In this document: one piece after another, positions 48,488 to 64,000 of the stretch
Layout of the letters: the number at the start of each line of letters is the position of its first letter
How positions within the stretch are numbered: the stretch's first letter is position 1
Origin: Neophaeotheca triangularis
Taxonomy: Eukaryota
Direction of reading: 5' to 3'
Assembly (NCBI GenBank): GCA_054600435.1
Contig: BAAIJX010000026.1
Location: 248,001-312,000 of the forward strand
DNA: 64,000 bases
Position numbers and translations under genes: made by a program
Notes under the pieces: model-generated
Told to the model about the DNA's origin: nothing
What the model saw: only the letters and a program-made list of their open reading frames with translations
The model's database searches: none

Positions 48488-49987
48488 TCACTCGACCCCG
48501 AACACGGCCCTAAACCTCCTCCAAAGCTCCCCTTGCATAGCCCTCCTGCTCTCGCCAGTCCGACTAGCAGCATCCTTGTTCTCCGCCGCCCTCCGGAGCA
48601 AATAATTCAAACACTCCGTCATGGATCCCCAAGTCGTGCACTTGAAAACCTGCTCCCTCAACAACCCCTTCCGCGTGGCTTCGGAACTGGAGACGTCGGC
48701 TTTGGCGGCCGCGAGCAACTGGCACGAGACTTCGTCGGCCATGCCTTGTAGTTGCGCGAAGGAGAGGGGGGTTAAGGACGTGCCTGTGGCGTGTTGGTCT
48801 TGGCGGAGGGCTTGCATCTGGGTCACGGTGGCGGCGTTGTGGGTCGCGAGGACGATGTTGGTGGCGGGCCAATTGGATGAAGAGGCGGACGGGGTGGCGG
48901 GGCGCAAGAGTGAGTTGTAGGAGCGTTGGATCAGCGCCGTCGCCAGGGTGTCGTAGGCGTGGTGGGTGGCTTCGATGGTATCGTGGATGAGGCTGCGTTG
49001 TTCGCTGTGCAGGTATGCGCCGCGGACGAGTTTGGCGCCGAGAATGAAGTTTTCGTTGCGGGCGGTTTCGAGGTGCTGGGAAAGGCTCGCCGGCATGGAC
49101 TTGAGGTAAGCTTGGTAGGTGTTGTAGACGACGGCTTTGCCGTTGGTGTTGTAGCTGCGCTGCATGGTCATGCACCAGCTGAAGAAGGCGTCGAGGGTGT
49201 TGGTTTCTTCGGCCGCTGGGAGGAGGGAAATATCTTTGTCTTTGGCTGCTTGGCAGACGGTGCGCATTGCCTCCTCCATGCGCTCGCTCGGGGCGTCATT
49301 GGCGAGCATTCGACGCAGGGCGGCGGGCCCCATGCCGCTCCATTTGAGGCCGACGAAGTCGCCGGGTTGGCTCATCTCGATTGTGTCGAGCAAGCCCTTG
49401 CGCCATACTGCTACGTCTGTTGCCTCATGGCCTTCGGCGTCCTTGAGCACCTCCAAGGCATACTCAAGGATCACTCCCGCATAACCTTGCTGCCTCAGAC
49501 CGGCACATGTGCGGTCAATTTGCGTCTTGCTCTCTCCTGCACAGAATTGCTTGTAGAATGTCTCCCATAGTATCCAGCGGAGGAGGGGATTCTTCTGCAC
49601 GTTGAAGAGGGGGCTTTTGCTCTCGAGCATGAGTCGGAGAACAGCTGTCGAAGCGCTGAGAAGGGTCGGTGACGAGGAGAGGGTGGTGATCAGATACGTC
49701 CTGAGGACTTGGGAAAGAGGGAGGCTTGCAAGAGCTGATTTCGAAACGCCAGGCTGAGCTTGCAGAGGGGGTGAGGCTGCTGGAGGAGGCGGACTGGGTT
49801 GGTTTGCCAGTGTGAAAGCTTGAGCAGAGGCATCTGGACGGGTGGAATGAAGCTGCCGTCGGTGTGGTTGGGTGGTCGTATGCGCTGCTCTGACACAGAG
49901 GAGGGGGGCGTAGCCGTTCCTTTTTGTGACGGAAGAAGACGAGAGCAGGACAGCCTCGATACGCTGCATGCGCAAAGAAGGCTTCAT
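48488..49987 (-). CDS. PUT1: Mitochondrial proline dehydrogenase (proline oxidase)
   Basis: 499 aa; presequence, 'FYKQFCAGE', 'YNTYQAYLK', 'GAKLVRGAY', 'LATHN', 'AQLQGMADEVS', 'YLLRRAAEN'. Confidence 0.95.
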   Translation of the reverse strand: MKPSLRMQRIEAVLLSSSSVTKRNGYAPLLCVRAAHTTTQPHRRQLHSTRPDASAQAFTLANQPSPPPPAASPPLQAQPGVSKSALASLPLSQVLRTYLITTLSSSPTLLSASTAVLRLMLESKSPLFNVQKNPLLRWILWETFYKQFCAGESKTQIDRTCAGLRQQGYAGVILEYALEVLKDAEGHEATDVAVWRKGLLDTIEMSQPGDFVGLKWSGMGPAALRRMLANDAPSERMEEAMRTVCQAAKDKDISLLPAAEETNTLDAFFSWCMTMQRSYNTNGKAVVYNTYQAYLKSMPASLSQHLETARNENFILGAKLVRGAYLHSEQRSLIHDTIEATHHAYDTLATALIQRSYNSLLRPATPSASSSNWPATNIVLATHNAATVTQMQALRQDQHATGTSLTPLSFAQLQGMADEVSCQLLAAAKADVSSSEATRKGLLREQVFKCTTWGSMTECLNYLLRRAAENKDAASRTGESRRAMQGELWRRFRAVFGVE

Positions 49988-51566
49988 CGTCGTTGTTGTT
50001 GTCGTCGTCGTCGCTAGTTGATGAGAGCTCGATACTGTTGAAGAGGACGGTGGGAGATGGATAGATCAATAGCAAGCGAACGAGGTTGATTCGAGCAACA
50101 AGCGAGAGCAGAGAGGTACTTGGCCTTGAAGTCTATCACGGGACGAAGGAAACCCTTATACTTGTCGCCCCCATTGACGGGACTCACGTCGTCGCCGCGA
50201 TCGCAGTCTCCCGTCACGGAGCTGCGAGGCAAAGAATGATAAAGGCGCGGCTACTGTCGGCGTCCTTTGTACTCGCCAGCCCCACCGTTCCGGCCCCCAC
50301 GCCGCTTTCACAGCTCGAGCTCGCCTTGTACGGCTGGGCGGTGAACAGCGGCAGAATACTGGCTGCGGCTGGGTGCGGTTAAGACTTTTTATGGAGAAGC
50401 TGGTCGACATCACCTCTTGGCTGCCGGCAGAGCGTGAGAAGAGATTGCCTTTGCCGGTGGGTACGCAGGGCTGGAATCGTCTTTCAATTACGTTTCCTGG
50501 AAGTCGAGGGCTTCTGGCCGCAGAAGTGAGAACGTCCCAGATGATCGTTTTGTGGAGTCTTATCTCGTGGGGAAGTATGGACCGGGCGCATTCGCAAGGG
50601 TTGTGGACTGCATGCCCATCAACCTCACAGCCCCTCGGGGACTCCTTGAACCTCCGTATCCACATGTGCTCGGGTATTCTTCTGCTTACCGTCAGCACGA
50701 TCCTTTCTTGATGTCGAGTAGTAGTGAATGGCCCAAGCAGCGTCCCAATTCCCGCCTAAAGAGATTGATGCGGTGCTTCGTTCAAGCCAGGCATCATGAG
50801 GGTTCCTCTTGCTGCGTCTGAGCAACAAAGTGGTACTATCGTAAGTGAATAGTATCGATCTAAAGTCACCCGGGGTGGGTGGACGAGAATGTGGTACCGG
50901 CGGTGGTTCTGAACGGAACGATTTTTGTGCTGTGCACACTGCTATGTACACAATCCAACCATACAATCCGAGGCGCTGTCCATCACCAAAGCAACAGCGA
51001 CGTCGCGATGTCTCTATCAATGTGCAGCTCCAGGCCAAACAGCACCGGAAAGACAAGACGGACACCGGTGCTGCTCGAGGTAAAGTACGGTACGCTAAGC
51101 TGCAATATCCATCTCAGTATCTCTTCTCCATCTCTTCCATCTCTTGTCGATCTATGGGCCCCCTTGCTCTCAAACCACACCACTGATCTTCCGCACTACT
51201 TTCCGCCTGCAATATTTGCCCCAAGTCGCGCTGACTTGTTAGCTGGCTCAGGTCCCAAGGGCAAAGGACCATATCCGGGCGTACCAGTTGTTGGCGTGTC
51301 TCAAATGGTTGCCGCCATTCCCTCCCTTGGCTCTTCCGCGCGATTGCTGGGGCCTTCCACGACCTCGTTCCTCTGGCCATCTGAGGAGTCGTGGCCGCGC
51401 ACCGAAGGGTGGTCTCGGTCGTACTGGTCAGCGCCATAGCCATTGCGGGCCATCGTGGCGCACTACTTGCAGCCGAGCCACTCCAGGCTCCACGACTCTG
51501 TTTGCAGCCATAAAGGCTATGGGGGTGGTGGTCAGGAAGCTAGAGAATCCTACAGCCGGCGGACCG

Positions 51567-51617
51567 GAAGTAGTCGCGTTTGAGATGATTGTAGGCGGGC
51601 AAGTAGATGGCGCTGAA
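51567..51617 (-). pseudogene. Short fragment of mitochondrial aspartate/glutamate carrier (Agc1-like)
   Basis: '[17 protein letters not shown]' closely resembles Agc1 'FSAIYFPTYxHLKxDxF'; frameshifted traces 'FLTT' and 'WLQTE' downstream resemble 'YLTTP...RLQVE'. Confidence 0.65.
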
Positions 51618-51767
51618 GGTGGAAGTGGTCCGGGCGAGTGCCATTCGCACTGGGAGCACCAAAGGCGTAACGTGGCACGATGGCGCTCTGTTTACTGCCA
51701 TATAGGCATTTCTATAGAAACGTTCCGTCGGAGGGCCGAAGGCCAAAATCCGGAGTGGGCGGTAGGC

Positions 51768-52133
51768 TTCGAACAGGCTGGGAATAAGGAGGCTGAGCAG
51801 GTGCAGCAACATGCCCAGGGCAATGTGCTTGACCACTACGGCGGCTGTTTGGCGATGGGCCTGGATGCAGCCGGTGAGGGCGTCTTTGAGTAGTGGTATG
51901 ACGGCGTAGACGTAATCTTTGTCCATCTCGCCGATGTACTCGAAGAGAAAGGACAAGGCCTCGAGCGATGCGACCTGGTCGTGAAGCTCTGGCAAGCGGT
52001 AGTCCTTCATCCGCACCGAAAGCACGGTGAATGGCTGACAGGTCTCGGCAGCCTCCCCAATGGCGATAGCAGCGCAGACACGGCTCTGACGCTCTTGGGC
52101 ACGAATGTCGTTGAGCAGAGTTGAGAGAACGTT
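51768..52133 (-). pseudogene. Degenerate internal fragment of U2 snRNP splicing factor SF3B1/Hsh155 (C-terminal HEAT repeats)
   Basis: '[37 protein letters not shown]...[27 protein letters not shown]...[15 protein letters not shown]' matches the recalled SF3B1 consensus, with radical substitutions and a deletion; only ~120 of ~1200 aa are present. Confidence 0.85.
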
Positions 52134-55112
52134 CGAGTCGTTCTTTCTCGCTTCGCAGGAGCGAGAGCCAACGCGTTCGCGATAGCCTTGGGGGTGGTGG
52201 TGAGGAAGCTGAAGTATTTCTGCTAGAGAACCAGGAATCGGTAATATTGGGGATTGGAGGTAGATTGTCTCGAGCTGCAGGCCTATAATCTGACTGCCGA
52301 TATTGGAATTGGGATCGTTGTGAGTCGGCGCGGTCTGAACGTGGTGTCGATGCTTGGTCGCTCTCTTGCTCTGCACTGACATTTTCGGCCAATAACTATC
52401 AATTGAAGGTTTATCCGCATTGTTGACCAGGAGTTCCGATGACAACCGCGAGGGCGATGCCTCAGACCGAATTGCCATAGCGGGACAGTGATATTGTGAT
52501 GTGCAATACACAGGAGCTGGAATGTTGTTCGCGGAACCTAGGAGCTTCTGCCTCTTTCTCGCTGCCTACTGTCATTGTTAGACGCGAAATCGAGCGTTAA
52601 AAGAATTCCGTGGACTAGGACTTACCGAATGGCCCTGAAATCTTCTCTGTGTGGTCTTCTGTTTCTCAGCTGAGGTGAGGAACATCGTGTGAAGAGAAAG
52701 TGATTGCTAGTCGATTGAGCTGAGAAACTAGGCAATAGTAGGTCGTCTCGGTGGTACCTGCATGGCAGCACTCGATACGCGTGATTAAGAGGTTGCAAGG
52801 GAGGAGAACAGCGTATACGATTAGAGGGAGCTGAATGTTGCAGAATTTGGTTGTATTGGTAGTAGAGTTTGAGTCGTGTATGGGATCTACGCCTCACTGG
52901 AGACTTCTAGGCAACAGAGAAACCCCCATTGCTGGCCTCACTGGCGACACAAGGCTGCCTGAGGCTGGTCAGAGTACGTAACCGAGACCTTGGCACACAG
53001 CCTCGATTCCACCTATTTAAGAAGCTCCGCGCCCCGTTTCATCTATCGTTCCTTCTTCCTCCTCCTATGCCAGGTTGTGATAACGTATTCCGTTCTTGAT
53101 CCTACAGTAGTCGGTGAGTAACTCCCCCCGGAAACGTTTCAATTCAAAGACTTAACTAACTTGGCAAGTTGCTTGCGAGCTATACTAACCTGGCTAGTAT
53201 AACGGACGATCTGCCGTCTTTCACAGCAACAATCCTACTGTCCACTTCTGTCCAGAGTCAGACGTTGCCTCTTGACTGTCTGGCTTTGATATATGTGGAG
53301 CACAGAGCAAAGCAGTGGAACATGGCGGCGCAGTGCTTGACGTCCTCTGGCGTTCTTGCTTACCGATCCTTCCTACATCTCTTACCTTTTCATCAGTCTT
53401 CTTGCTCAGAGCAGGAGGCTGGAGAAGAGAGAGCAACTCCCTAACAGCAACGCACCTGCACAACTTGCGTAAAACGTAGCTACGAAAGCCGTCTCGTGAT
53501 CCCCATTACGTGCTACGCCTTTTGAACAACGCGCCCTGAACTGCCTAGCAGTGAATTGGTAGTTGCGAACCACTGATCATAACAGCGCGCTGGGCAACCT
53601 TAGCTTGACTAGTTTGAAGAGTGAGAGGCCCAAAATTTGACATTCAGCCCTTGGTAATGTGTTTGTACCTGCCAGAAACGCCTCATGATTTCTCGCGCTT
53701 GATTGATGTGCGTCTTGTTCCCTTCCTAACCCGCAAGTTCCAGAATAACGCTTGAGTAGGGCATATATCTCTGCGAGCGTTCCCTACGCGCTTCTGTGCG
53801 GGCAAGGACAGGTCGGAAGCCTTGACACATACCTTAGACGTAGGGAGGTGCATTTACGGGAACATTGAGCCCCCCAAGAACAAACTTGTCATATTCAGTG
53901 CTCTTGCCACGCCGTATTAATTGGAAGGAGAATGGGGCCACGCTAGTCGCTTGAGGAAGGGGCTGCGGTATTGTTCAAGACGCGTCTTCAGCGGCTGCCT
54001 CCCGCGCCTCGATGCCTCGCCTTGCTTCTTCGTTTTTCATCACATCCCTTCTCCCTCTCCAGACACGCCGCCATCCATCCACACATTAATTTCACGCATT
54101 ATTCCGATGTAAAATGCCAGCGTCAGGACCACATCCACCAGCTGGTCGTAGCCACATCCTCTCATATCTTGCTAACAGAGCTCATCGCCCCTGGCTCAAA
54201 CATCCATGAGGTCAGTCTCAAATATCATCAGTCCCCTCACCGTCTTCAAATCACGCTCCCCTTTCATCTACTAATGATCGTTATAGGAACCCTTCTGCCG
54301 TAGCCGCGCCACGTCAACTACCCAACGTCTGTTCAGGGCCGGCTTTCATGTACCTCTCTTATCCTCCGAAAGATCGCTCACCGCTGCTACACTCGAATCT
54401 CACAAGAGAAGCTCAATCTCCGCACCATCCGAGTAGTCCGTCCAGGAGCAAAGAGCTTGGATCATTCGGTTGGGGCATGGATGTCTGGTTCTGTCATGCT
54501 CCATGGACCATCTGCCGACAGCTGACAACGATCGACTGCTTCATTTGTCACTCAGTCCCGGAGTCGCTGTCAAGAGAACCTCGAGGGCCACGCGTAACCT
54601 GCGGGCTTGCCGCGGATCATGACTAGTATCTTTACTGTGATGGCCCCCAGCGTGAGATCATTTACTTGATGCTCTTTCAGGCTCGGTAAGCTAGTCCCGT
54701 CACCGCCTCGGAAGGGTCTTTCTAACACTCCAACAGCAACCAGCGGAGCGACAGTAATACATATACTTGGTCTCCTTCCACCGGACGATTGCGTGTCTGC
54801 GAGACATGGGTCCCAGCCTAACTGGCCGACGGTTCCCTCGGACCGCCCACTCGTCTTGATCACGGTCATCACATCGCTTGATGCGTCGGCCAACTCATCC
54901 CTTCCATCGCAGCTTTCCTCCCCATAGCTACCTCCGCTATCTTGTCGTCGGTTCAGTTGTTACTCTCAAGTGGCTTTTGCTGCTGAGCCTATCCTTGTTC
55001 GGAACAACATCTCGTGCGATACGGCCTTATGAACAACTCGGCATCGGGCCCGAGGCCTCTCTCAGCACAAACCAGAGCTTCGCCGCCGGATGCGAGCCGT
55101 GACGCTGGCACC

Positions 55113-55290
55113 AGCGATATCACTTACTACGCCCCTGACCTCGGCTCGTGCGGCGGGAGTCACGGCGCTTTCGACAATATTGTCGCTCTCTCCCACGTTA
55201 TCACGACCACCCAGAACGGAGGCAACCCCAACAACAGCCCTCTGTGCGGCTCGACCATCACCACCCACTACAGGGCTATGAGACACTAGG
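55113..55290 (+). pseudogene. Truncated RlpA-like double-psi beta-barrel (expansin-like/Asp f 7-like) domain
   Basis: 'DITYYAPDLGSCG...IVALSH...NGGNPNNSPLCGSTIT.HY', then frameshift/stop; the 'VVD.C..C...DLS' half is missing; no upstream signal peptide in frame. Confidence 0.75.
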
Positions 55291-55841
55291 CTGCAACCCG
55301 TGCGATACGGCCTTAATACAAGTCGTCAGCGCGTCGGTGCGGACGTGCACAGATACTACGACTGGATGGACTTCCGGTCACATCTACCTCGTGTGACAAG
55401 ACCTCATGAAGACCTCGGAATCGGCAGCTCGGTTTTTGGGCCCAGCTACCACCACCACCAAACTTGTCTGTCATTCTTATCCCTTCCACCCACTTACCAC
55501 ATTCTTTACACCACAAACGCTTGCAAACCACTGCTATACAGCACCTTCCGTTTCACACCAAAAAGACAACCAATCACACACCCCGGTCCCCCACGACAGC
55601 CAACGGAACTTTCACCAAGATGGCGCCATCACTATGGCGGCCTCCGCTGTCTCCACCCGCGACGAGTGTAGCGGCTCGTGCGATACGACCTTATGGAACA
55701 TCCGCCAGCAATGGCACTCTTGTTGCAGACGCTCTTCTGCTACAACGCTGCAACGGGATTGGCCTTTCGGTTTTCTCCACCTCTTGCGTCGACGCGACGC
55801 CCAGCCTATGGGCGCCTTGGCCACGGGCGCCATAGGCGACA

Positions 55842-56100
55842 AACGCGGCACCGTGGACATCACCGAGGCGGCGACGGTCATCGAGACCGTCGTCGTCACC
55901 CACACTGTCTGGGTCGACCCTCAACCAACGCGGCACTGTGGACGTCACCGAGACCGCGAGGGTCATCAAGACCGTCGCCGTCACCCACACTGTCTGGGTC
56001 GACCCTCAACCAACGCCGCACTGTGGACGTCACCGAGACCGCGAGGGTCATCAAGACCGTCGCCATCACCCGCACTGTCTGGGTCGAGCCTCAACCCACT
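55842..56100 (+). repeat. 85-bp tandem triplication of a coding-derived segment
   Basis: GTGGAC anchors at 55853, 55938 and 56023; each unit reads 'VD.TE.A.VI.TV..T.TVWV.PQPT', shifting frame in each copy. Confidence 0.93.
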
Positions 56101-56822
56101 CGCGCCCGCCACGGCCACGGCCGCAGCTACCTTGTCGGTGCGTGGGCAAGGTTTTGAGGGCGGAAGTGGCTCTTTCAAAGGACACTTTAGGGGTTCTGAT
56201 AGCTTAATGTAATCAAGATTGGGTTTTTGCGAATGCCCATCACTGCGTCATGTCAAGGAGGTTGCATCGTCTTCGACTGTGACATTTTGTTATCTCTACC
56301 TAGGTACCTAGGTATTTACTGTAGACCTTTCTCAGCTTTGCACAAGAGCAATAATTCGGCCGCTGACAGTCTGATAGTCTACTAGGTGGCGCTTGCTTTT
56401 TTCAGGCTTACCAGGTACCTAAGTAGCTTTGGAGATGGAAGATTTGAATGGACCCACCGATCAACCGACCCACAACTACTTTCTCCACATTCAAGAAGGG
56501 TAATTCATCACTTCATCTTGTCTGTGACTGAATTTTTATTCATCTCCCGTCACTGAGCCGATCTACACCAATCGAATCCCAGCGTTATGCATGAGATCAG
56601 AGGCAATCAGCATGGCTCGATCAGCAAGAAGGGAATGTCCCATTTCAAGAACCTGCCGACGATAACTACCTTGCGCCGCACATTATGAGACATCCCCTTG
56701 CTGCGCGAGAAGTTCTGCAAGAAGTCTGCAAGAAACAACACCGTGCGGATTGCGTGGACGATAGAGAGCCATGCATCTTTGGGCCTAACACCGTCACCGA
56801 TTGTGGATAATAACTTGAATGT

Positions 56823-56967
56823 TAGAAGGAGACTTTTGAAACAGGAAAACAACGCAGGACGCCCCTGCTAGCCACATAACTTGGATGTTCAGTTGGACTG
56901 AGAATCGGGGAAGTGTGGCTAGCAGGGGCGTCCTGCGTCGTTTTCCTGTTTCAAAAGTCTCCTTCTA
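56823..56967. repeat. 54-bp near-perfect inverted repeat with 37-nt spacer (MITE-like or hairpin RNA)
   Basis: Arms 56823-56876 and 56914-56967 are reverse complements at 53/54 positions; the element begins and ends with TA. Confidence 0.93.
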
Positions 56968-57917
56968 TTCCTCGGTGAGACCTTGCACTCGTTCAGCAAA
57001 GTCGTCGTTTCTCTTGGCCTTCTCTTTGCCTGCTCTTGATCCTGCTCCTGTCGGCGTCCTAGTACTCTCCTCACACGCGAGGGCACTATTGGGATCGAGA
57101 ATTTGCGCATAGGCGGCTTTACCAACCGTTTGGGGATCGATTGAGACAGAGAAGCATGGCTTGCTCCCTAAAGACGCGGTTGGCTCCGTGCTAAGTGTAT
57201 CTTCGCTGACAGGTCAGAGTCATTGGGGATCCGATCCTTTGCCTTTACGAGGAGCGCAGTGGTTGGAGAATCCATCGCATATTATGAGGTCCAGTTGGCG
57301 CAGGCTTGCGAAGGCTTTGTAGATCGCGTCGATGGATCAATCTAGCGTCTTGAGAGTTTGGTAGGGGGACGATTGGTCGATGCTTTTCCTATATATCTTG
57401 CTGCGAAGATGATTGTCAGTAGGGTCTCCCAGGGAAATATCGATGGAGTCTAGACGCACCGTCCGTCCTGACCATGGCAAGATGCGCCGATGCTGGCTCC
57501 TCTGATTCGTAAATGTTAATAGGGGTATGCAGTGTGACAGTTTCGCTGCATCGTGAACAACGATAGACTCGATCAATCTACTCATCGTTCACTTACGCAT
57601 TCTCTTCATTTGCATTCTCACCGGCGCTCCAAGTGAAGCATGCCAAGGCAATGATGTCGCTGTCGCTAAGCAAAAGCACTGACCATGCTCGCACACACAA
57701 AACCGCGCTCCCCTCCCGATTTGTTTCCTCTTCCTCTTCCCAACCTCGACATCCATTTTGCACAGCTTTTTCAACCTCCATCCACACACCACCTCACAGT
57801 AAGTATCTTTCGCTGTCAGCACACAGTACAGCTCTCTCATCGCACATTCTATATGCCAATGTATTAACAAACATTCTCTCAGGCCGACACCTCACATCGT
57901 ATAAATGTCACTGGACA

Positions 57918-58900
57918 CTGGAGTTTCAATTCGACCTGCCCAAATTCAAGCTACGTATACAGCTTGGCCAATGTCTCTGTTCTACCTTGCCCTGTTTCAG
58001 CAAACACACAATAACAGCCACTTCAGCATACCTCCGGACCACGACATTGCCTCCACTCCCACAAGAACATCCTCGCCCTGAGCGCATCGCCACCTCCTGG
58101 AGTTTCAATTGACCTGCCAAAAGCCAAGTTGAGTCAGCTTGGCCGAAGTCTCTGTCCCTGTGCCCACGTCTGAAGAAACACATGATAACAAATGCATCAG
58201 ATCGGTCTCCACTCTCGATCCACGAGACGTTTTCGCACCCTCCAAGTTCACCATGATCTCGCCTCCGCCTACTGGAGTTTCAATTGACCTGCCGAAAGCC
58301 AAGTTGAGTTCAACTTGGCCCAAGTCTCTGTCTCTCCAGCCATGGTTTGCAAGACATGTAATAACAACTTTCCAGATGCCCTTCCAGCTTTAACAGCAAG
58401 CCTAAGGCCGCCATCGACCGCGGCATTCGACACACAGAGGAGGATTGAGGATTGACCAAGTGCCACAAGCCAAGTTGAGTCCCAGCTTGGCCAACGTCTC
58501 TGTCTTACCTACCCTGCTTCGGGAACAACATGATGACAAGCGCTCAGGCACCCTCCAATCTTCGAACATCAACTCAAGCCCGCTCTCGACCGCGACATTC
58601 AACACACGGAGGAGGAAGAGAAATTGACCAGGTGCTACAAGCCAAGTTGAGTCCCAGCTTGGCTAATGTCTCTGTCTTACCAGCCCCAGTTGGGGAACAG
58701 CATGATGACAAACAATCTAGGCACCTTTTCAACCTCAACAGTCACCCTGTTGCTGCTTTCGAGCGCTTTCGACCTGAGCTTGCCGACTGGGTATGGAGGA
58801 GGATGGGAGTTGACCAGGTGCCACAGGCCAAGTTGAGTTCCAATTTGGCCATTGTCTCTGAATTCACTGGCATAATTGATGGACACAAGATAACAACTTC
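57918..58900 (+). repeat. Six-copy ~175-bp tandem array with a conserved palindromic core
   Basis: Core ATTGACC...GCCAAGTTGAGTxCARCTTGGCC..GTCTCTG recurs with CAAG at 57947, 58125, 58300, 58471, 58643 and 58829 (spacing 171-186). Confidence 0.92.
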
Positions 58901-61900
58901 ACAGATTGGCTCCCTAGCTGCCCTTCTCAGGGATGTGCTGCCAACCCATCCGGCATTGCCGAAGACTTTCTTTCATCATGACATTGGCTTTTTGACCAGT
59001 GTGTGGAGAAGGACATTGTTTCTACTCGACCGTACGATATCAAGACTTTTTATGTAGCCCTTGCCTCTGTGTTCTTATTGAATTGATGAGGTAGATCCAT
59101 GCAGCACAAATTTCGGCAGACCTTCGTTCTGTTATTGATTTTTGGTAGCGGACGGTGCGTCGCTTATTATCCACGTGCGCTCAAATTAGGGGGAAGGCCT
59201 TCGATGCTCTACATCTATACCATACGCAATCTGTCTGTCCGACTCCTTGAGAACGCAGCCCCCAACACCTCATTAACGCTAACTTCTACGTTCGCCATTC
59301 TGCCTTCGCAATTTTGTGGAACCTATTTCTCTCCTTCGACAACCGTGTCTTACATTCTCAATACAAGCCTCCAACCTATCCACAGCCGACTGTCACGTCT
59401 ACGTAATCATGTCATGCTCCACCCACTGTAGCGCTCCGTGCGTGCTTCATCAGACATTGCACTTCTGATAGAGTCTTCATCGATATGATCTGCTTTTACG
59501 TGCTTCTGCGTGGCCTTGCTACTCTGGAGACGGCCTTTTGCTATGCTTGTAGTTGAGTAAAAGGTCCAGGATTGTCTCGGGCAAGGCGAGTAGTCAATGC
59601 AAGGGTGTTCGGACTACGGCAAAGAATCCTTGCCAAATTAAAGAAGGACTGAGACTATGTCGTTGATCAAGAGGGTCACCAGTAAAGTATGGCCGTAATC
59701 GATGTGATCCCGGGGGGCGGTGTTAATTTTTGCAAAATTAACCATATCAGGTGTGGGTCTCCTTTTGTCGAACAATGGCCTCCAAGACGACGGATGTTCC
59801 GGTCTTTGATAAGATTCAAACGTTCGTCTGTGATCGTGAATTGAGAGTGTAACAGTAGTGCTTTCTTCATCGTCGCTGGCAGACCGTGCTGCTTTGAAAG
59901 CCTTAACACCAAGGCAAAGCTCTCCTGAGCACGGTCGTTATTCTAATGTGACTATTCCCACAGCCGCCGTTCCGTCGAAGCAGACTATGATCACGCGCAC
60001 TTACAGTATCAACAACGACCACAAGGCCATCGTCCGAAGCAGCGACAACAAGAAAACCACAACATGTCGTAAAGAAGGATAACAGCGACAGCAACAGCCT
60101 GTGAGTTCGCCTACAACCACCTAGCTTAGACCCTACAACCAAATTGACCGCAGGGAGACACGGGAGTTCATTTCAGAGCAGGAGGATCAGGGGCCGTATG
60201 GCAAACTTGTTGTTGAGCCCAAGCTCTTCGATCAGCAAATACGCCTTTAAAGTCCAGCCTTGAGCCTGGCCAGTGTCCGTACGGTGAGCACTATTCCGAA
60301 CGACATGGGTGCCGTCTGGCCCACGCGGAGATTGTCTTGCGAAAGCTAGCTCGGCGGCGGCGTCTTGACAAGTTTGGCCACACGCCTTCAGGGGTGTGCT
60401 CCATAGACCGAAGCCAGGTCATGGCATGTTGTCTGAAACAAGGCCCTTTGAGAAATACTGGGTGAGCGCCCGGGGTTTCTGCTTCTCTATAAAAGCGTGT
60501 ACCTTCGGTCTTCGTGGCTCGCTTGTGCTCCCCCCGCCCCCGTACGGTCAGAACGCTCTGTAGTGTTCTGACGGTACAAAGAGCGGCGTGTACTATACCA
60601 CTGTCGCCTGTCGATCAAATATCATGCCACTAACTCCGTTTCCAGTTGTCTGAAAATTTTGGATCGCGCCTATCGGCCAGTCTCTGGTGTATCAGCATAC
60701 ATGTACTGTGCGGCACCGCATCGCAATGTCAATGACGAGCTGATCCATGATGGCTTCGACGCCCAGGGCAACAATACCAGCCAGAGGCTACCAGAACGCC
60801 GATCAATCCTGCGCACACGGTTATTCTTACTTGCCGATCACAATCATTCCAAAACAAAATGGACGCTCGCTGTAAGATGAACAGCGCCAGAGTTGTGCAC
60901 ATTATGCTCGGAAAGTCGGAGGTTGTCCCATGGTGCTGGTACACGACCACGGGCACGCAGCCTTTGCGAACAACTCGCACAAGCCTGGGACGAAGAGTTT
61001 CCTTCCAGGGTTCGAAAATCTGGTTTCATACATTGTGCTCGGGACCGTGTAGAGCATTCCATAAGCTTCCCGGCATGTCGAAGAAAGGCCACGTCAAGGG
61101 GGCTTCCGCAGAGAGGCCAGAGACACCTCCGTCCCAAACAACAACGTCGCGAACCCGATCCACCAAACCCAAGAACTCAACCTCGTCCTCTGGGTAAGTA
61201 GGTAAGGTAAGGCAGGTAAGTAGCAACCCCCCCCCTCGCGGGACCCAGCCCAGACGTCCAAACAACCACAACGCTAGGCCCAAGCCTAAAAAACGCTATT
61301 GCAATTTAGCGAAAACCGCTAGCCCGACTCGGCTAGCCCGCGATAGGAGTCAAGACTTCTGTCCGGGCGAAACTCAGGGAATAGTGTGCTGGGGTGCGGG
61401 TGAAGCTATTGCGTGCTTTGCTCGAAACGTCGCGGGATCGGTCGGCATGGAGCTACCTAGTGAGAGTCTTGAGGGCCAGAGGGTGGGAGTTGATGCGTTA
61501 GGCTCGGAGTTGGTGTTGTCTTTGCGACAGCGAGTTGGGATAGGAGCGGGCGAGCGGGGCGGGAGGTCGGGTCGGTTGGACATGGGACGGGGGTGGGGGG
61601 TTGATGTTTGGAGAGGGTTCCGAAGCTCGAGAGCTTTTGTCTAGAGCCCGGGGATGTTTACTGCTACAATGTCGGTCGCGCAGCGCTGCACAAAGTCAGG
61701 ACTGGCTAAGCTTTGATACATAGCTCTGATCAACCACTGCCAAAAGCCCGTCGAAACAAGAAGAGTGCAAGACTCGATGTCACGGAGAATGATATTTGAC
61801 AAATCTATACCCCGCCCACGCACGGTACCTAGCTGAGAAAGCCTTCTCGAAACTTTCCAAACCCCATAAGCCCGAGCCCCTTTCCAACCGGGTTACCGCA

Positions 61901-62079
61901 AGTATCCAATCCCAAAACCAATGGAGAGAAAACAGCAAGAGCCAAAACAAGAAGCCCTCTTCGTGTAAAGAACCCAGAAAGCGACCGCTCCCTGTGGCAA
62001 AACCGAGAGATCCAAAGCCATTAATGCAATCAAGCCGGCACAAGAATCCAAAGCAAAATCAGCGAACATCCAGTCCCCA

Positions 62080-64000
62080 TTACTGCCGATAAGGATCATA
62101 ATCCCCCCCATGACCACGCTGACCGACCGGGGAATCCTCGCGCTCATCGCCCCTCGCGCTCCCAGTCCAGCCGGCAGACCATCCCGCACCATTCTCAGCA
62201 GCAGTATTCCCACCACCACCAAGACTATTACCATTACCATTACCATTCGCACTCCCCTTTCCCCCAATCCCTCCGATTTTCAATGGCGCAGGCTTAACCT
62301 CGGAAACACTGACTCTCCCTCCATCCCCCCCAGCGGCTTGAACCCTCAAGAACCCCGGCGAGTCCAGCGCCCCACCGCTAGCAACGCTGTTGCGGTCGTC
62401 GTAGAAAGACTGCAGCGTCTCTTCCAGCCCTCTGCGGCGGGGAAGCGGCGTATGGGTCTCCACGTAACCCTCCCCTTCGTCGTCGTCGTCCGCATCGTCG
62501 TCGTCATCATCGGTATTGGAGGGACCAGAGGGATCAGAGAGCACGCCGACGTTTTTGACGAGTTCTACCACCCCGGCGCTCAGATTCGAAGCCGCAGCAT
62601 CGAGCAGCGCGATCGGTGAAAGCCCCGCAGAAGCCGCGTGTTGTTTCGTAGCGGTTATGAGGGAGTTTGCGGTGCCCGTGACGCGGGCGCGGAGTTTGAG
62701 AATCTGCACGTTGCCGCTGGAATTTTGCGGTTGTGAAGTGGAGGAGTTGTCGGTGTGGCTATCCGCCACGGCGGACGCGCTTATGGCTTGCACGGCGATG
62801 ATGACGGGTTTGAGGCTTTCCAGGAGGAGGGATTCGGTTTCGGCTGGGTCGGAGGTTTCGGCGCGGGCGTTGCGCAAGAGGTCCGAGATGGAGGTTTGGA
62901 ACGCGGTAATTTGGACGTCGTGGACGCGGCCGGTGGGGGTAATGAGAGCGTTGCGGGTGGTGCGGTCGAGTTGGCTTTCACTGCTGAGGAGGTTGTGGCC
63001 GTTTTGTTGTAGCCCTAGCGTGGAGGCGCGGAGATTTTTATTCAGGGCTCTGACGCGAGCGCAGCGTTCGCGCCATTGTCCATTTTGGGTTTCGAGGTGC
63101 GTGATGCGGTGGGCGAGCTTCTCTTCGCGCTCCACGGCGGCGTCATTGGATTGTGCTAGGTCGCGCATCTCTCGGAGGTAGAGGGTTGCTTCTTCGCGAA
63201 CTTGGGTGGTTAGTTTGGCTTGCTGTTCGAGTTCTCGCTCTAGCAGTTCGATGCGCTCGCGGTCTTGCTCGTTACCTGTCGCAGGAGCGGGTTGTTTGCG
63301 CAAATCGGCGTTCTCGCGTTGCAAATTTGTCAGTTGGGCGTGTAAGGTGTCCGTCTGAGCGTGTAAATTATCGAGCTCCGCTGCCTGGTCTTCGTTCTGC
63401 AATTGTAGCTTGTCGAGTTCGGCGAGTTGGCGTTGTAGGTCTTCGTTCTGGGTCTGCGCCGTGCTTTGCAAGCGGTTGGCGTCTTGGAGCTTTTGCTCTA
63501 GCTCTTTGCGAAGCTCATGCCATTCGTTGCGTTCGTTACCGACGCCGACTTCACGGTCGCGGCTGGTCGTTCGGGCCTTTTCAAGCTCCGAGTCTTTCTC
63601 CAGCACACGGCTTTCGAGCTGTTCAAGCATTTCCCGGAGTTCCATTGTGGTAGTCTTGAGAGATGTGATTTCCGTCTCTTGCGCCTTGATGGTTTCGCGA
63701 TCCTTTTCGTTTCCTTGACCGGCCGAATTGAGCACAGAAGATATGCCACCCATGCTATACTGGCTGACACCACTCAAGACTTTTCCATCACTATTATTGT
63801 CCAACGCGAATGCGTCACTGCCTCTCTGCGCCGCCTGATCAGCTTCATCCCCAGACTCATCCTCCTCAACCATGGTCGACTTGTTAGGCACGATAGTATT
63901 TTGCGCAAAAGTTTTGGGCAAAGGACGGCCGAAAGACCCGCCTTCGCTGCCATTGGTAGGCGCTCGAGGTCTGCCAGCGGGTGGTGGACCCCCAGGACCA
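62080..64000 (-). CDS. SPA2: Polarisome scaffold Spa2/SpaA, 3' portion (5' end outside the window)
   Basis: Frame is open to the window edge; 'RPLPKTFAQNTIVPNKSTMVE', long coiled coil 'VREEATLYLREMR...WRERCAR', GIT-like C-terminal 'TANSLITATKQHAASAGLSPIALLDAAASNLSAGVVELVK'. Confidence 0.88.
   Translation of the reverse strand, partial: GPGGPPPAGRPRAPTNGSEGGSFGRPLPKTFAQNTIVPNKSTMVEEDESGDEADQAAQRGSDAFALDNNSDGKVLSGVSQYSMGGISSVLNSAGQGNEKDRETIKAQETEITSLKTTTMELREMLEQLESRVLEKDSELEKARTTSRDREVGVGNERNEWHELRKELEQKLQDANRLQSTAQTQNEDLQRQLAELDKLQLQNEDQAAELDNLHAQTDTLHAQLTNLQRENADLRKQPAPATGNEQDRERIELLERELEQQAKLTTQVREEATLYLREMRDLAQSNDAAVEREEKLAHRITHLETQNGQWRERCARVRALNKNLRASTLGLQQNGHNLLSSESQLDRTTRNALITPTGRVHDVQITAFQTSISDLLRNARAETSDPAETESLLLESLKPVIIAVQAISASAVADSHTDNSSTSQPQNSSGNVQILKLRARVTGTANSLITATKQHAASAGLSPIALLDAAASNLSAGVVELVKNVGVLSDPSGPSNTDDDDDDADDDDEGEGYVETHTPLPRRRGLEETLQSFYDDRNSVASGGALDSPGFLRVQAAGGDGGRVSVSEVKPAPLKIGGIGGKGSANGNGNGNSLGGGGNTAAENGAGWSAGWTGSARGDEREDSPVGQRGHGGDYDPYRQ

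Follow-up and report, generated by a model that had tools for sequence, protein, structure and literature searches.

The 64,000-nt stretch of Neophaeotheca triangularis DNA considered here (GenBank assembly GCA_054600435.1, contig BAAIJX010000026.1, positions 248,001 to 312,000; hereafter the window, whose own numbering is used throughout) contains a tandem array of six diverged copies of a unit of about 175 bp, and the question raised by this locus is what kind of element such an array represents. The array is genuine and old, it does not code for protein and it is an orphan; its anatomy is regular, its conservation is modular and a coding signal is absent. The best reading of this anatomy, which is put forward tentatively, is that the array may belong to a multi-intron non-coding transcript of the + strand, in which the splice signals and a hairpin located at or beside the donor would be under selection.

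A repeat search identified the six tandem direct copies at 57883-58904 (+ strand), in register and with a spacing of 172-186 bp (copy positions 57960, 58135, 58311, 58483, 58655 and 58841; successive distances 175, 176, 172, 172 and 186 bp). An earlier note on this DNA had described a six-unit array with a period of about 175 bp. Its description is borne out by these copies, each of which carries an inverted repeat (6-10 bp), and the inverted repeats that it quoted for all six copies are present in the sequence. With the unit borders set at a conserved YAG, the alignment of the six units (A1) had a mean column identity of 59%. The A1 profile recovered exactly six units from the 64-kb window (E values from 7e-29 to 3e-37), with no further copy found there below E 0.05. 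The array was not reported by Tandem Repeats Finder, because its units are too diverged. The alignment revealed two sub-families (units 1-3 and units 4-6, with units 4 and 5 as the closest pair), which are separated by a 3-nt indel within the core.

As shown in Table 1, short conserved modules alternate with variable sequence within each unit. The best-kept part is the GTCTCTG heptamer (100% identity), and not the hairpin arms (85-90%). Between the two sub-families, the identity of the variable part is 42% and that of the modules 85-100%. The spacing of the modules is fixed despite the variable sequence between them: GTCTCTG is separated from ATRACA by 36-38 nt, and the YAG end lies 9-10 nt past the ACA end in 6/6 units. 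Since neither drift nor the homogenisation of tracts readily explains conserved islands of 7-10 bases between saturated columns, we count this modular pattern as evidence for selection; the six units are paralogues, however, and do not provide independent samples.

The same pattern bears on the possibility that the array is a functionless relic, i.e. the product of a tandem duplication whose copies are drifting apart, with the conservation of the core resulting from uneven mutation or partial homogenisation. Neutrality predicts even decay, yet the modules show 82-100% identity and the interposed link and pre-YAG 6-7 nt 35-50%; homogenisation works on tracts and not on interleaved 7-nt islands, the YAG is kept at a fixed distance in 6/6 units inside a saturated tail, and no decay signature of the repeat-induced point mutation type was detected (TpA/ApT 0.47; (CpA+TpG)/(ApC+GpT) 1.43). 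We therefore regard a relic as unlikely, even though no homologous locus, protein or RNA family was found in the collections searched, the array lies within a 9.5-kb stretch without a Pfam-recognisable open reading frame (ORF), and a second tandem array is present 2 kb upstream, which suggests that the region is duplication-prone.

The 3′ parts of the units resemble the ends of U2-type introns: in 6/6 units a branch-point-like NTRAC motif (ATRACA) is followed by N6-7 and a nearby YAG acceptor. Two donor candidates precede this end, namely GTCTCTG, present in all six units (implied intron of 51-54 nt), and GTTGAGT, present in five of the six (implied intron of 73-75 nt). Because an NTRAC/YAG end is combined with a GT-heptamer at an intron-like distance upstream, the units look like exon-intron modules. 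The window contains 16 strong GTRAGT..NTRAC..YAG matches with a median length of 60 nt (the ATRAC branch motif occurs in four of these), and the lengths implied for the array (51-54 or 73-78 nt) fit these local intron-like matches.

The earlier note had also placed a C/A-rich leader and an intron-like stretch (GTAAGT...TATTAAC...CAG) upstream of the array, and both were found there. This stretch (57799-57882), directly adjacent to the first unit, is one of four canonical GTRAGT..NTRAC..YAG matches in the ORF-poor 56-62 kb region, where 0.9 would be expected on both strands and only 3 of 300 shuffles reach four. The proposal of a spliced + strand RNA with six hairpins was strengthened in one part and weakened in another: splicing on the + strand can be argued beyond the putative upstream intron, since each unit has ATRACA and a YAG at 9-10 nt, and the part that relied on covariation fell away (see below).

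The base composition is in line with this. The GTCTCTG..YAG segments have an A+T content of 54%, compared to 46% in the rest of the units, and are similar in this respect to the upstream intron-like stretch. The variable segments are C-rich and G-poor on the + strand (142 C vs 69 G) and the core is balanced; the GC skew of the variable segments and leader on this strand is -0.35. The + strand, to which the earlier note had assigned its spliced RNA, is supported as the likelier functional strand by the C-rich, G-poor variable segments and leader. A minus-strand reading was considered and rejected (donor-like GGTAAG in two units only, and no upstream minus-strand gene model).

The second recurrent element of the units is the hairpin. 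RNAalifold predicted an identical 9-bp helix in all six units, and in a count of the helix as ten pairs 90% of the cells pair. Pair 147/158 is U.G in three units, U-A in two and C-G in one, pair 146/159 includes one G.U, and for the outer pair 140/165 unit 5 has A-U and unit 6 has G-C, with no pairing in the other four. On the + strand, G.U is the only type of non-Watson-Crick pair that occurs within the helix. The helix changes that are informative with regard to strand amount to about two independent transitions, an outcome with a chance of ~0.25 by our own estimate. Hairpins of 9 bp are common, with 17 on the + strand of the window compared to ~7 in shuffles, and five of the 17 are located within the array. 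What is above chance is the retention of the hairpin in six copies that have diverged elsewhere, not the presence of a hairpin itself. RNA-level selection on the helix is compatible with these data but not demonstrated by them.

We infer transcription, splicing, the choice of donor and any binding partner along the following lines. An old, non-protein-coding tandem array would be read on the + strand within an RNA polymerase II transcript that has its start in the C-rich leader, at about 57.7 kb. In such a transcript each unit would consist of a fast-evolving C-rich, G-poor segment (~65-100 nt) and a conserved core of ~55 nt (TTGACC..TGCC..hairpin..GTCTCTG), followed downstream by ~30 variable nt, the branch-point-like ATRACA and, 9-10 nt on, the YAG. 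Splicing would remove one short intron per unit, of 51-54 nt with GTCTCTG as the donor or of 73-75 nt with GTTGAGT as the donor (78 nt in unit 1). In the first case, the hairpin would be the last element of each exon, and the mature RNA would present six hairpins at intervals of ~120 nt along an unstructured, C-rich backbone, possibly serving as a platform for multivalent binding. In the second case, the donor GTTGAGT lies within the hairpin, which would occlude it and gate splicing. Both a shifted U1 register and the regulation of splicing by sequestration of donors in inhibitory structures or hairpins are described in a review (PMC9311317).

Several observations weigh against a spliced transcript of this kind. 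Conservation was assessed among six paralogous, non-independent copies only, and within these copies, which are too few for a firm verdict on the helix, covariation is no better than in shuffled controls: the covariation argument of the earlier note did not survive the comparison, its score of 0.167 being matched by 300 of 500 column shuffles, and the number of pairs changing on both sides (one) was matched by 429 of 500. The folds of whole units are no stabler than those of shuffles (z from +0.82 to -1.68). The usual fungal splice donor consensus is GTRWGT, to which GTCTCT is a poor fit. GTTGAGT fits a donor consensus only in a U1 register shifted by one position, and it is missing from unit 1, which has other letters there (equivalent span 78 nt). 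Human donors of the /GUNRAGU form, which is also that of GTTGAGT, are read by U1 in such a register, and it is for human cells that this source documents it (PMC4856993). A single canonical intron-like match, such as that upstream of the array, may arise by chance (0.9 expected per 6 kb, both strands). Moreover, “unit 0” (57740-57882) could be aligned to the units and was not significant against the unit profile, and the tail at 58905..59098 (“unit 7”), which may represent a decayed seventh unit (this is unproven), gave no match to the unit profile at E up to 10.

A palindrome in 6/6 units together with covariation that does not exceed the shuffles is what would be predicted if the array acted as DNA. 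In that case the units would be composite cis-regulatory modules, with the near-palindrome GCCAAG..CTTGGC as the site of a dimeric factor, flanked by TTGACC, TGCC and GTCTCTG and repeated on a roughly nucleosome-like scale, and they would regulate a neighbouring transcription unit. The occurrence of several conserved modules outside the hairpin and the regular spacing of 172-186 bp are also in line with this. We nevertheless consider it doubtful, because ~45 conserved bases in five modules per unit is much for one factor site, ATRACA-N6-7-YAG with its fixed spacing resembles the 3′ end of an intron, and a DNA site does not explain why the variable segments differ so strongly in composition between the strands. 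In addition, the mismatches of the palindrome all still pair in a + strand RNA (the two or so events evaluated above), and we recognised no motif of a known fungal factor in our own reading, made without a motif library.

The remaining alternative is that the array derives from a decayed protein-coding repeat gene, with ~58 aa per repeat, a motif I-D-(Q)-x-P-x-A-K-L-S and a frame broken by frameshifts. The longest ORF at the array has 192 codons (58479-59057) and covers only units 5-6 and the tail, which agrees with the earlier claim that the array is not spanned by any ORF; an ORF of this length occurs in 44 of 1000 shuffles. The open frame speaks for a coding origin, as do the 3-nt length of the core indel between the sub-families and a comparison of units 4 and 5, in which four of five differences within 20 core codons are synonymous in the motif frame (a post hoc count). 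Such an origin is nonetheless quite improbable. Only one of the five periods is divisible by 3 (the other four are 175, 176, 172 and 172), the common peptide-like motif is distributed over three frames in the six units, with stops present, and neither splice model restores a single frame: the “exons” would have 121, 123, 120, 120 and 133 nt in the GTCTCTG..YAG model, and 101, 102, 98, 98 and 111 nt in the GTTGAGT..YAG model, and in neither is there a single open frame. The mismatches between units 4 and 5 number 9, 16 and 11 at codon positions 2, 3 and 1, respectively, which is not significant, and are flat in the other unit pairs. The GC content at third codon positions of the 192-codon ORF is 0.49, whereas two real genes of the window have values of 0.72 and 0.62. 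The continuous frame and the period in multiples of 3 that characterise a gene for a repeat protein or for a precursor of processed repeat peptides are not found here.

Database searches gave a similar picture. A recognisable decayed repeat protein, the outcome that the earlier note had named as contrary to its proposal, was not found in either Pfam or homologue searches. In nine frames no Pfam family was detected at the curated cut-off, the two matches obtained (E 0.16 and 0.29) being at chance level, and three ORFs had no homologue in a word-indexed search of an index of 5.8 billion clusters. This protein collection includes the annotated proteome of the window, as its proline dehydrogenase was matched exactly (source NCBI). 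An exhaustive HMMER search of 1.84 billion representatives gave a single match, to a translated satellite of 2817 aa, which was judged spurious since it aligns the non-repeat tail only.

The array is also an orphan at the nucleotide level, with no relative in any collection searched. Rfam 15 gave no match at gathering score in the window; within 56.5-60.5 kb, four chance-level matches (E 0.7-5) were far below gathering and included no hammerhead or other ribozyme. Neither a tRNA nor SINE-like (short interspersed nuclear element) A/B boxes were found. A metagenome scan with the hairpin pattern returned 23 loci, which were dismissed as chance because none of the BLASTN matches extended beyond the pattern (24-36 nt, best E 3e-4). 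A box C/D small nucleolar RNA (snoRNA) was rejected, with box C-like TGATGA in only two of the six units and no CTGA (box D) in place, and so was an H/ACA snoRNA (ACA 32 nt past the conserved core; folds not stable). In keeping with the earlier note, the array is not a CRISPR locus: its cores are diverged, its spacers partly homologous and its host is an ascomycete, and no cas-like Pfam match was obtained among 51 ORFs scanned in 48.5-64 kb.

Comparison with known systems revealed partial likenesses. A search of the literature for repeat-bearing fungal long non-coding RNAs (lncRNAs) yielded nothing relevant among the matches listed. The mammalian Xist A-repeat belongs to a repeat-bearing lncRNA, and shares with the array several short conserved cores capable of forming hairpins, poorly conserved spacers, a transcript without an ORF (putative in the present case) and a proposed role as a multivalent protein-binding platform. 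Unlike the A-repeat, the units of the array are ~175 nt long rather than ~50, contain intron-like signals and occur in an ascomycete; there is no sequence relation. Non-coding snoRNA host genes produce a spliced transcript in which conservation is higher in the intron-associated parts than in the exons. The putative intron-associated parts of the array likewise exceed its “exons” in conservation, but a snoRNA would not fit into the short candidate introns, which have no Rfam match at gathering score. With the short U2-type introns of filamentous ascomycetes the units share a GT-heptamer, NTRAC and a YAG 9-10 nt past ACA. They differ from ordinary introns of this type in their atypical donors (GTCTCT, or GTTGAGT in the shifted U1 register), and in that the modules are tandem paralogues with “exons” between them that have no reading frame.

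Fungal families of related intron-like elements with inverted repeats or a stable predicted structure are also known. Introner-like elements and the “sister (stw)introns” found in Hypoxylaceae occur in hundreds or scores of copies scattered over unrelated protein-coding genes, and combine canonical splice signals with long inverted repeats (45-55 nt) at their termini (PMC3609843, PMC8469720). In contrast to the elements so described, the copies of the array are tandem and local, with no other in the 64-kb window, and their inverted repeat is 9-10 bp long. Dispersed near-identical copies and the extra-stable structure of introner-like elements were not found in the window, given the fold z values of +0.82 to -1.68.

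A more specific form of the spliced-transcript reading, to which we attach very little probability, is a fungal lncRNA of six tandem exon-intron modules in which selection would keep almost only elements that engage the spliceosome: the donor-like GUUGAGU held in the hairpin, UCUCUGU downstream of it (5/6 units), the branch-point-like AURACA and the YAG. The function of such an RNA would lie in structure-gated splicing itself or in the titration of splicing factors, and not in the sequence of the product. The heptamer extends to TCTCTGT in five of the six units (57974, 58149, 58325, 58497 and 58669), and 11 occurrences of TCTCTGT were counted on the + strand of the window, five of them in the array. 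TCTCTGT (UCUCUGU in RNA) is the exact complement of the ACAGAGA motif of the U6 small nuclear RNA; this complementarity was noticed post hoc and may be a coincidence.

If transcribed and spliced as predicted, the locus would be a compact non-coding gene in which only splice signals and a repeated hairpin are conserved. It would then offer a tractable fungal model for the gating of splice-site choice by RNA structure, and also for the building of multivalent RNA platforms from repeat modules. If it is not transcribed, it would be a conserved array of DNA sites or a curiosity of local duplication.

Table 1. Features of the array and its flanks, and identity of the modules within the units (module identities are pairwise, over all 15 unit pairs).
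Feature	Position	Strand	Signals, composition or identity	Basis
C-rich, G-poor leader; candidate first exon or promoter-proximal tract	57690..57798	+	C 49, G 8, A 24, T 28 of 109	
Canonical intron-like stretch, 84 nt	57799..57882	+	GTAAGT...TATTAAC...CAG	pattern scan
Unit 1, most divergent	57883..58026	+	hairpin CAAGCT/AGCTTG 57947-57966; GTCTCTG 57973; ATAACA 58011; CAG end 58026	sequence reading, profile (E 7e-29)
Unit 2	58027..58200	+	hairpin 58123-58143; GTTGAGT 58128; GTCTCTG 58148; ATAACA 58185; CAG end 58200	
Unit 3	58201..58375	+	perfect hairpin 58298-58319; GTTGAGT 58303; GTCTCTG 58324; ATAACA 58361; CAG end 58375	
Unit 4	58376..58547	+	hairpin 58469-58491; GTTGAGT 58474; GTCTCTG 58496; ATGACA 58533; CAG end 58547	
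Unit 5	58548..58720	+	hairpin 58640-58664, additional A-U pair; GTTGAGT 58646; GTCTCTG 58668; ATGACA 58705; TAG end 58720	sequence reading, profile
Unit 6	58721..58904	+	hairpin 58826-58850, additional G-C pair and one G.U; GTTGAGT 58832; GTCTCTG 58854; ATAACA 58890; CAG end 58904	sequence reading, profile
Tail	58905..59098	+	faint unit-like remnants GGAGAAGGA..., GCCCTTGCCTCTGTG	MAFFT aligns tail onto units
Module: variable 5′ part			47%	
Module: pre-core (TTGACC..TGCC)			73%	
Module: hairpin 5′ arm			85%	
Module: hairpin loop			74%	
Module: hairpin 3′ arm			90%	
Module: 4-nt link			50%	
Module: GTCTCTG heptamer			100%	
Module: middle 30 nt			51%	
Module: ATRACAA			82%	
Module: last 9 columns			35%	

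The array is located in a region of ~9.5 kb (52600-62000) without a Pfam-recognisable ORF, which is flanked by genes for a PP2A-A-like HEAT protein (51543-52565, - strand) and a C3G9 VBS-like protein (62083-63999, - strand). The second tandem array of this region (55839-56102, + strand) consists of three 85-nt copies, 85-90% identical and without a Pfam match, and lies inside a stop-to-stop ORF (55397-56212; 271-codon open frame). Its copies are read in three frames, because 85 is not divisible by 3.

Two further open regions without a Pfam match are found on the + strand. An ORF of ~110 codons (59099-59428), situated 195 bp past the array, would encode a product whose hydrophobic N-terminus appears signal-peptide-like by eye. 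At 60751-61641 a single stop codon separates two open frames of 148 codons each, which share one reading frame and have a low-complexity translation. The proline dehydrogenase gene (48491-49987, - strand) belongs to clusters of Eukaryota, mostly Ascomycota, which identifies the host as an ascomycete. Its 90% identity cluster has two members only, suggesting that close relatives of this fungus are sparsely sequenced.

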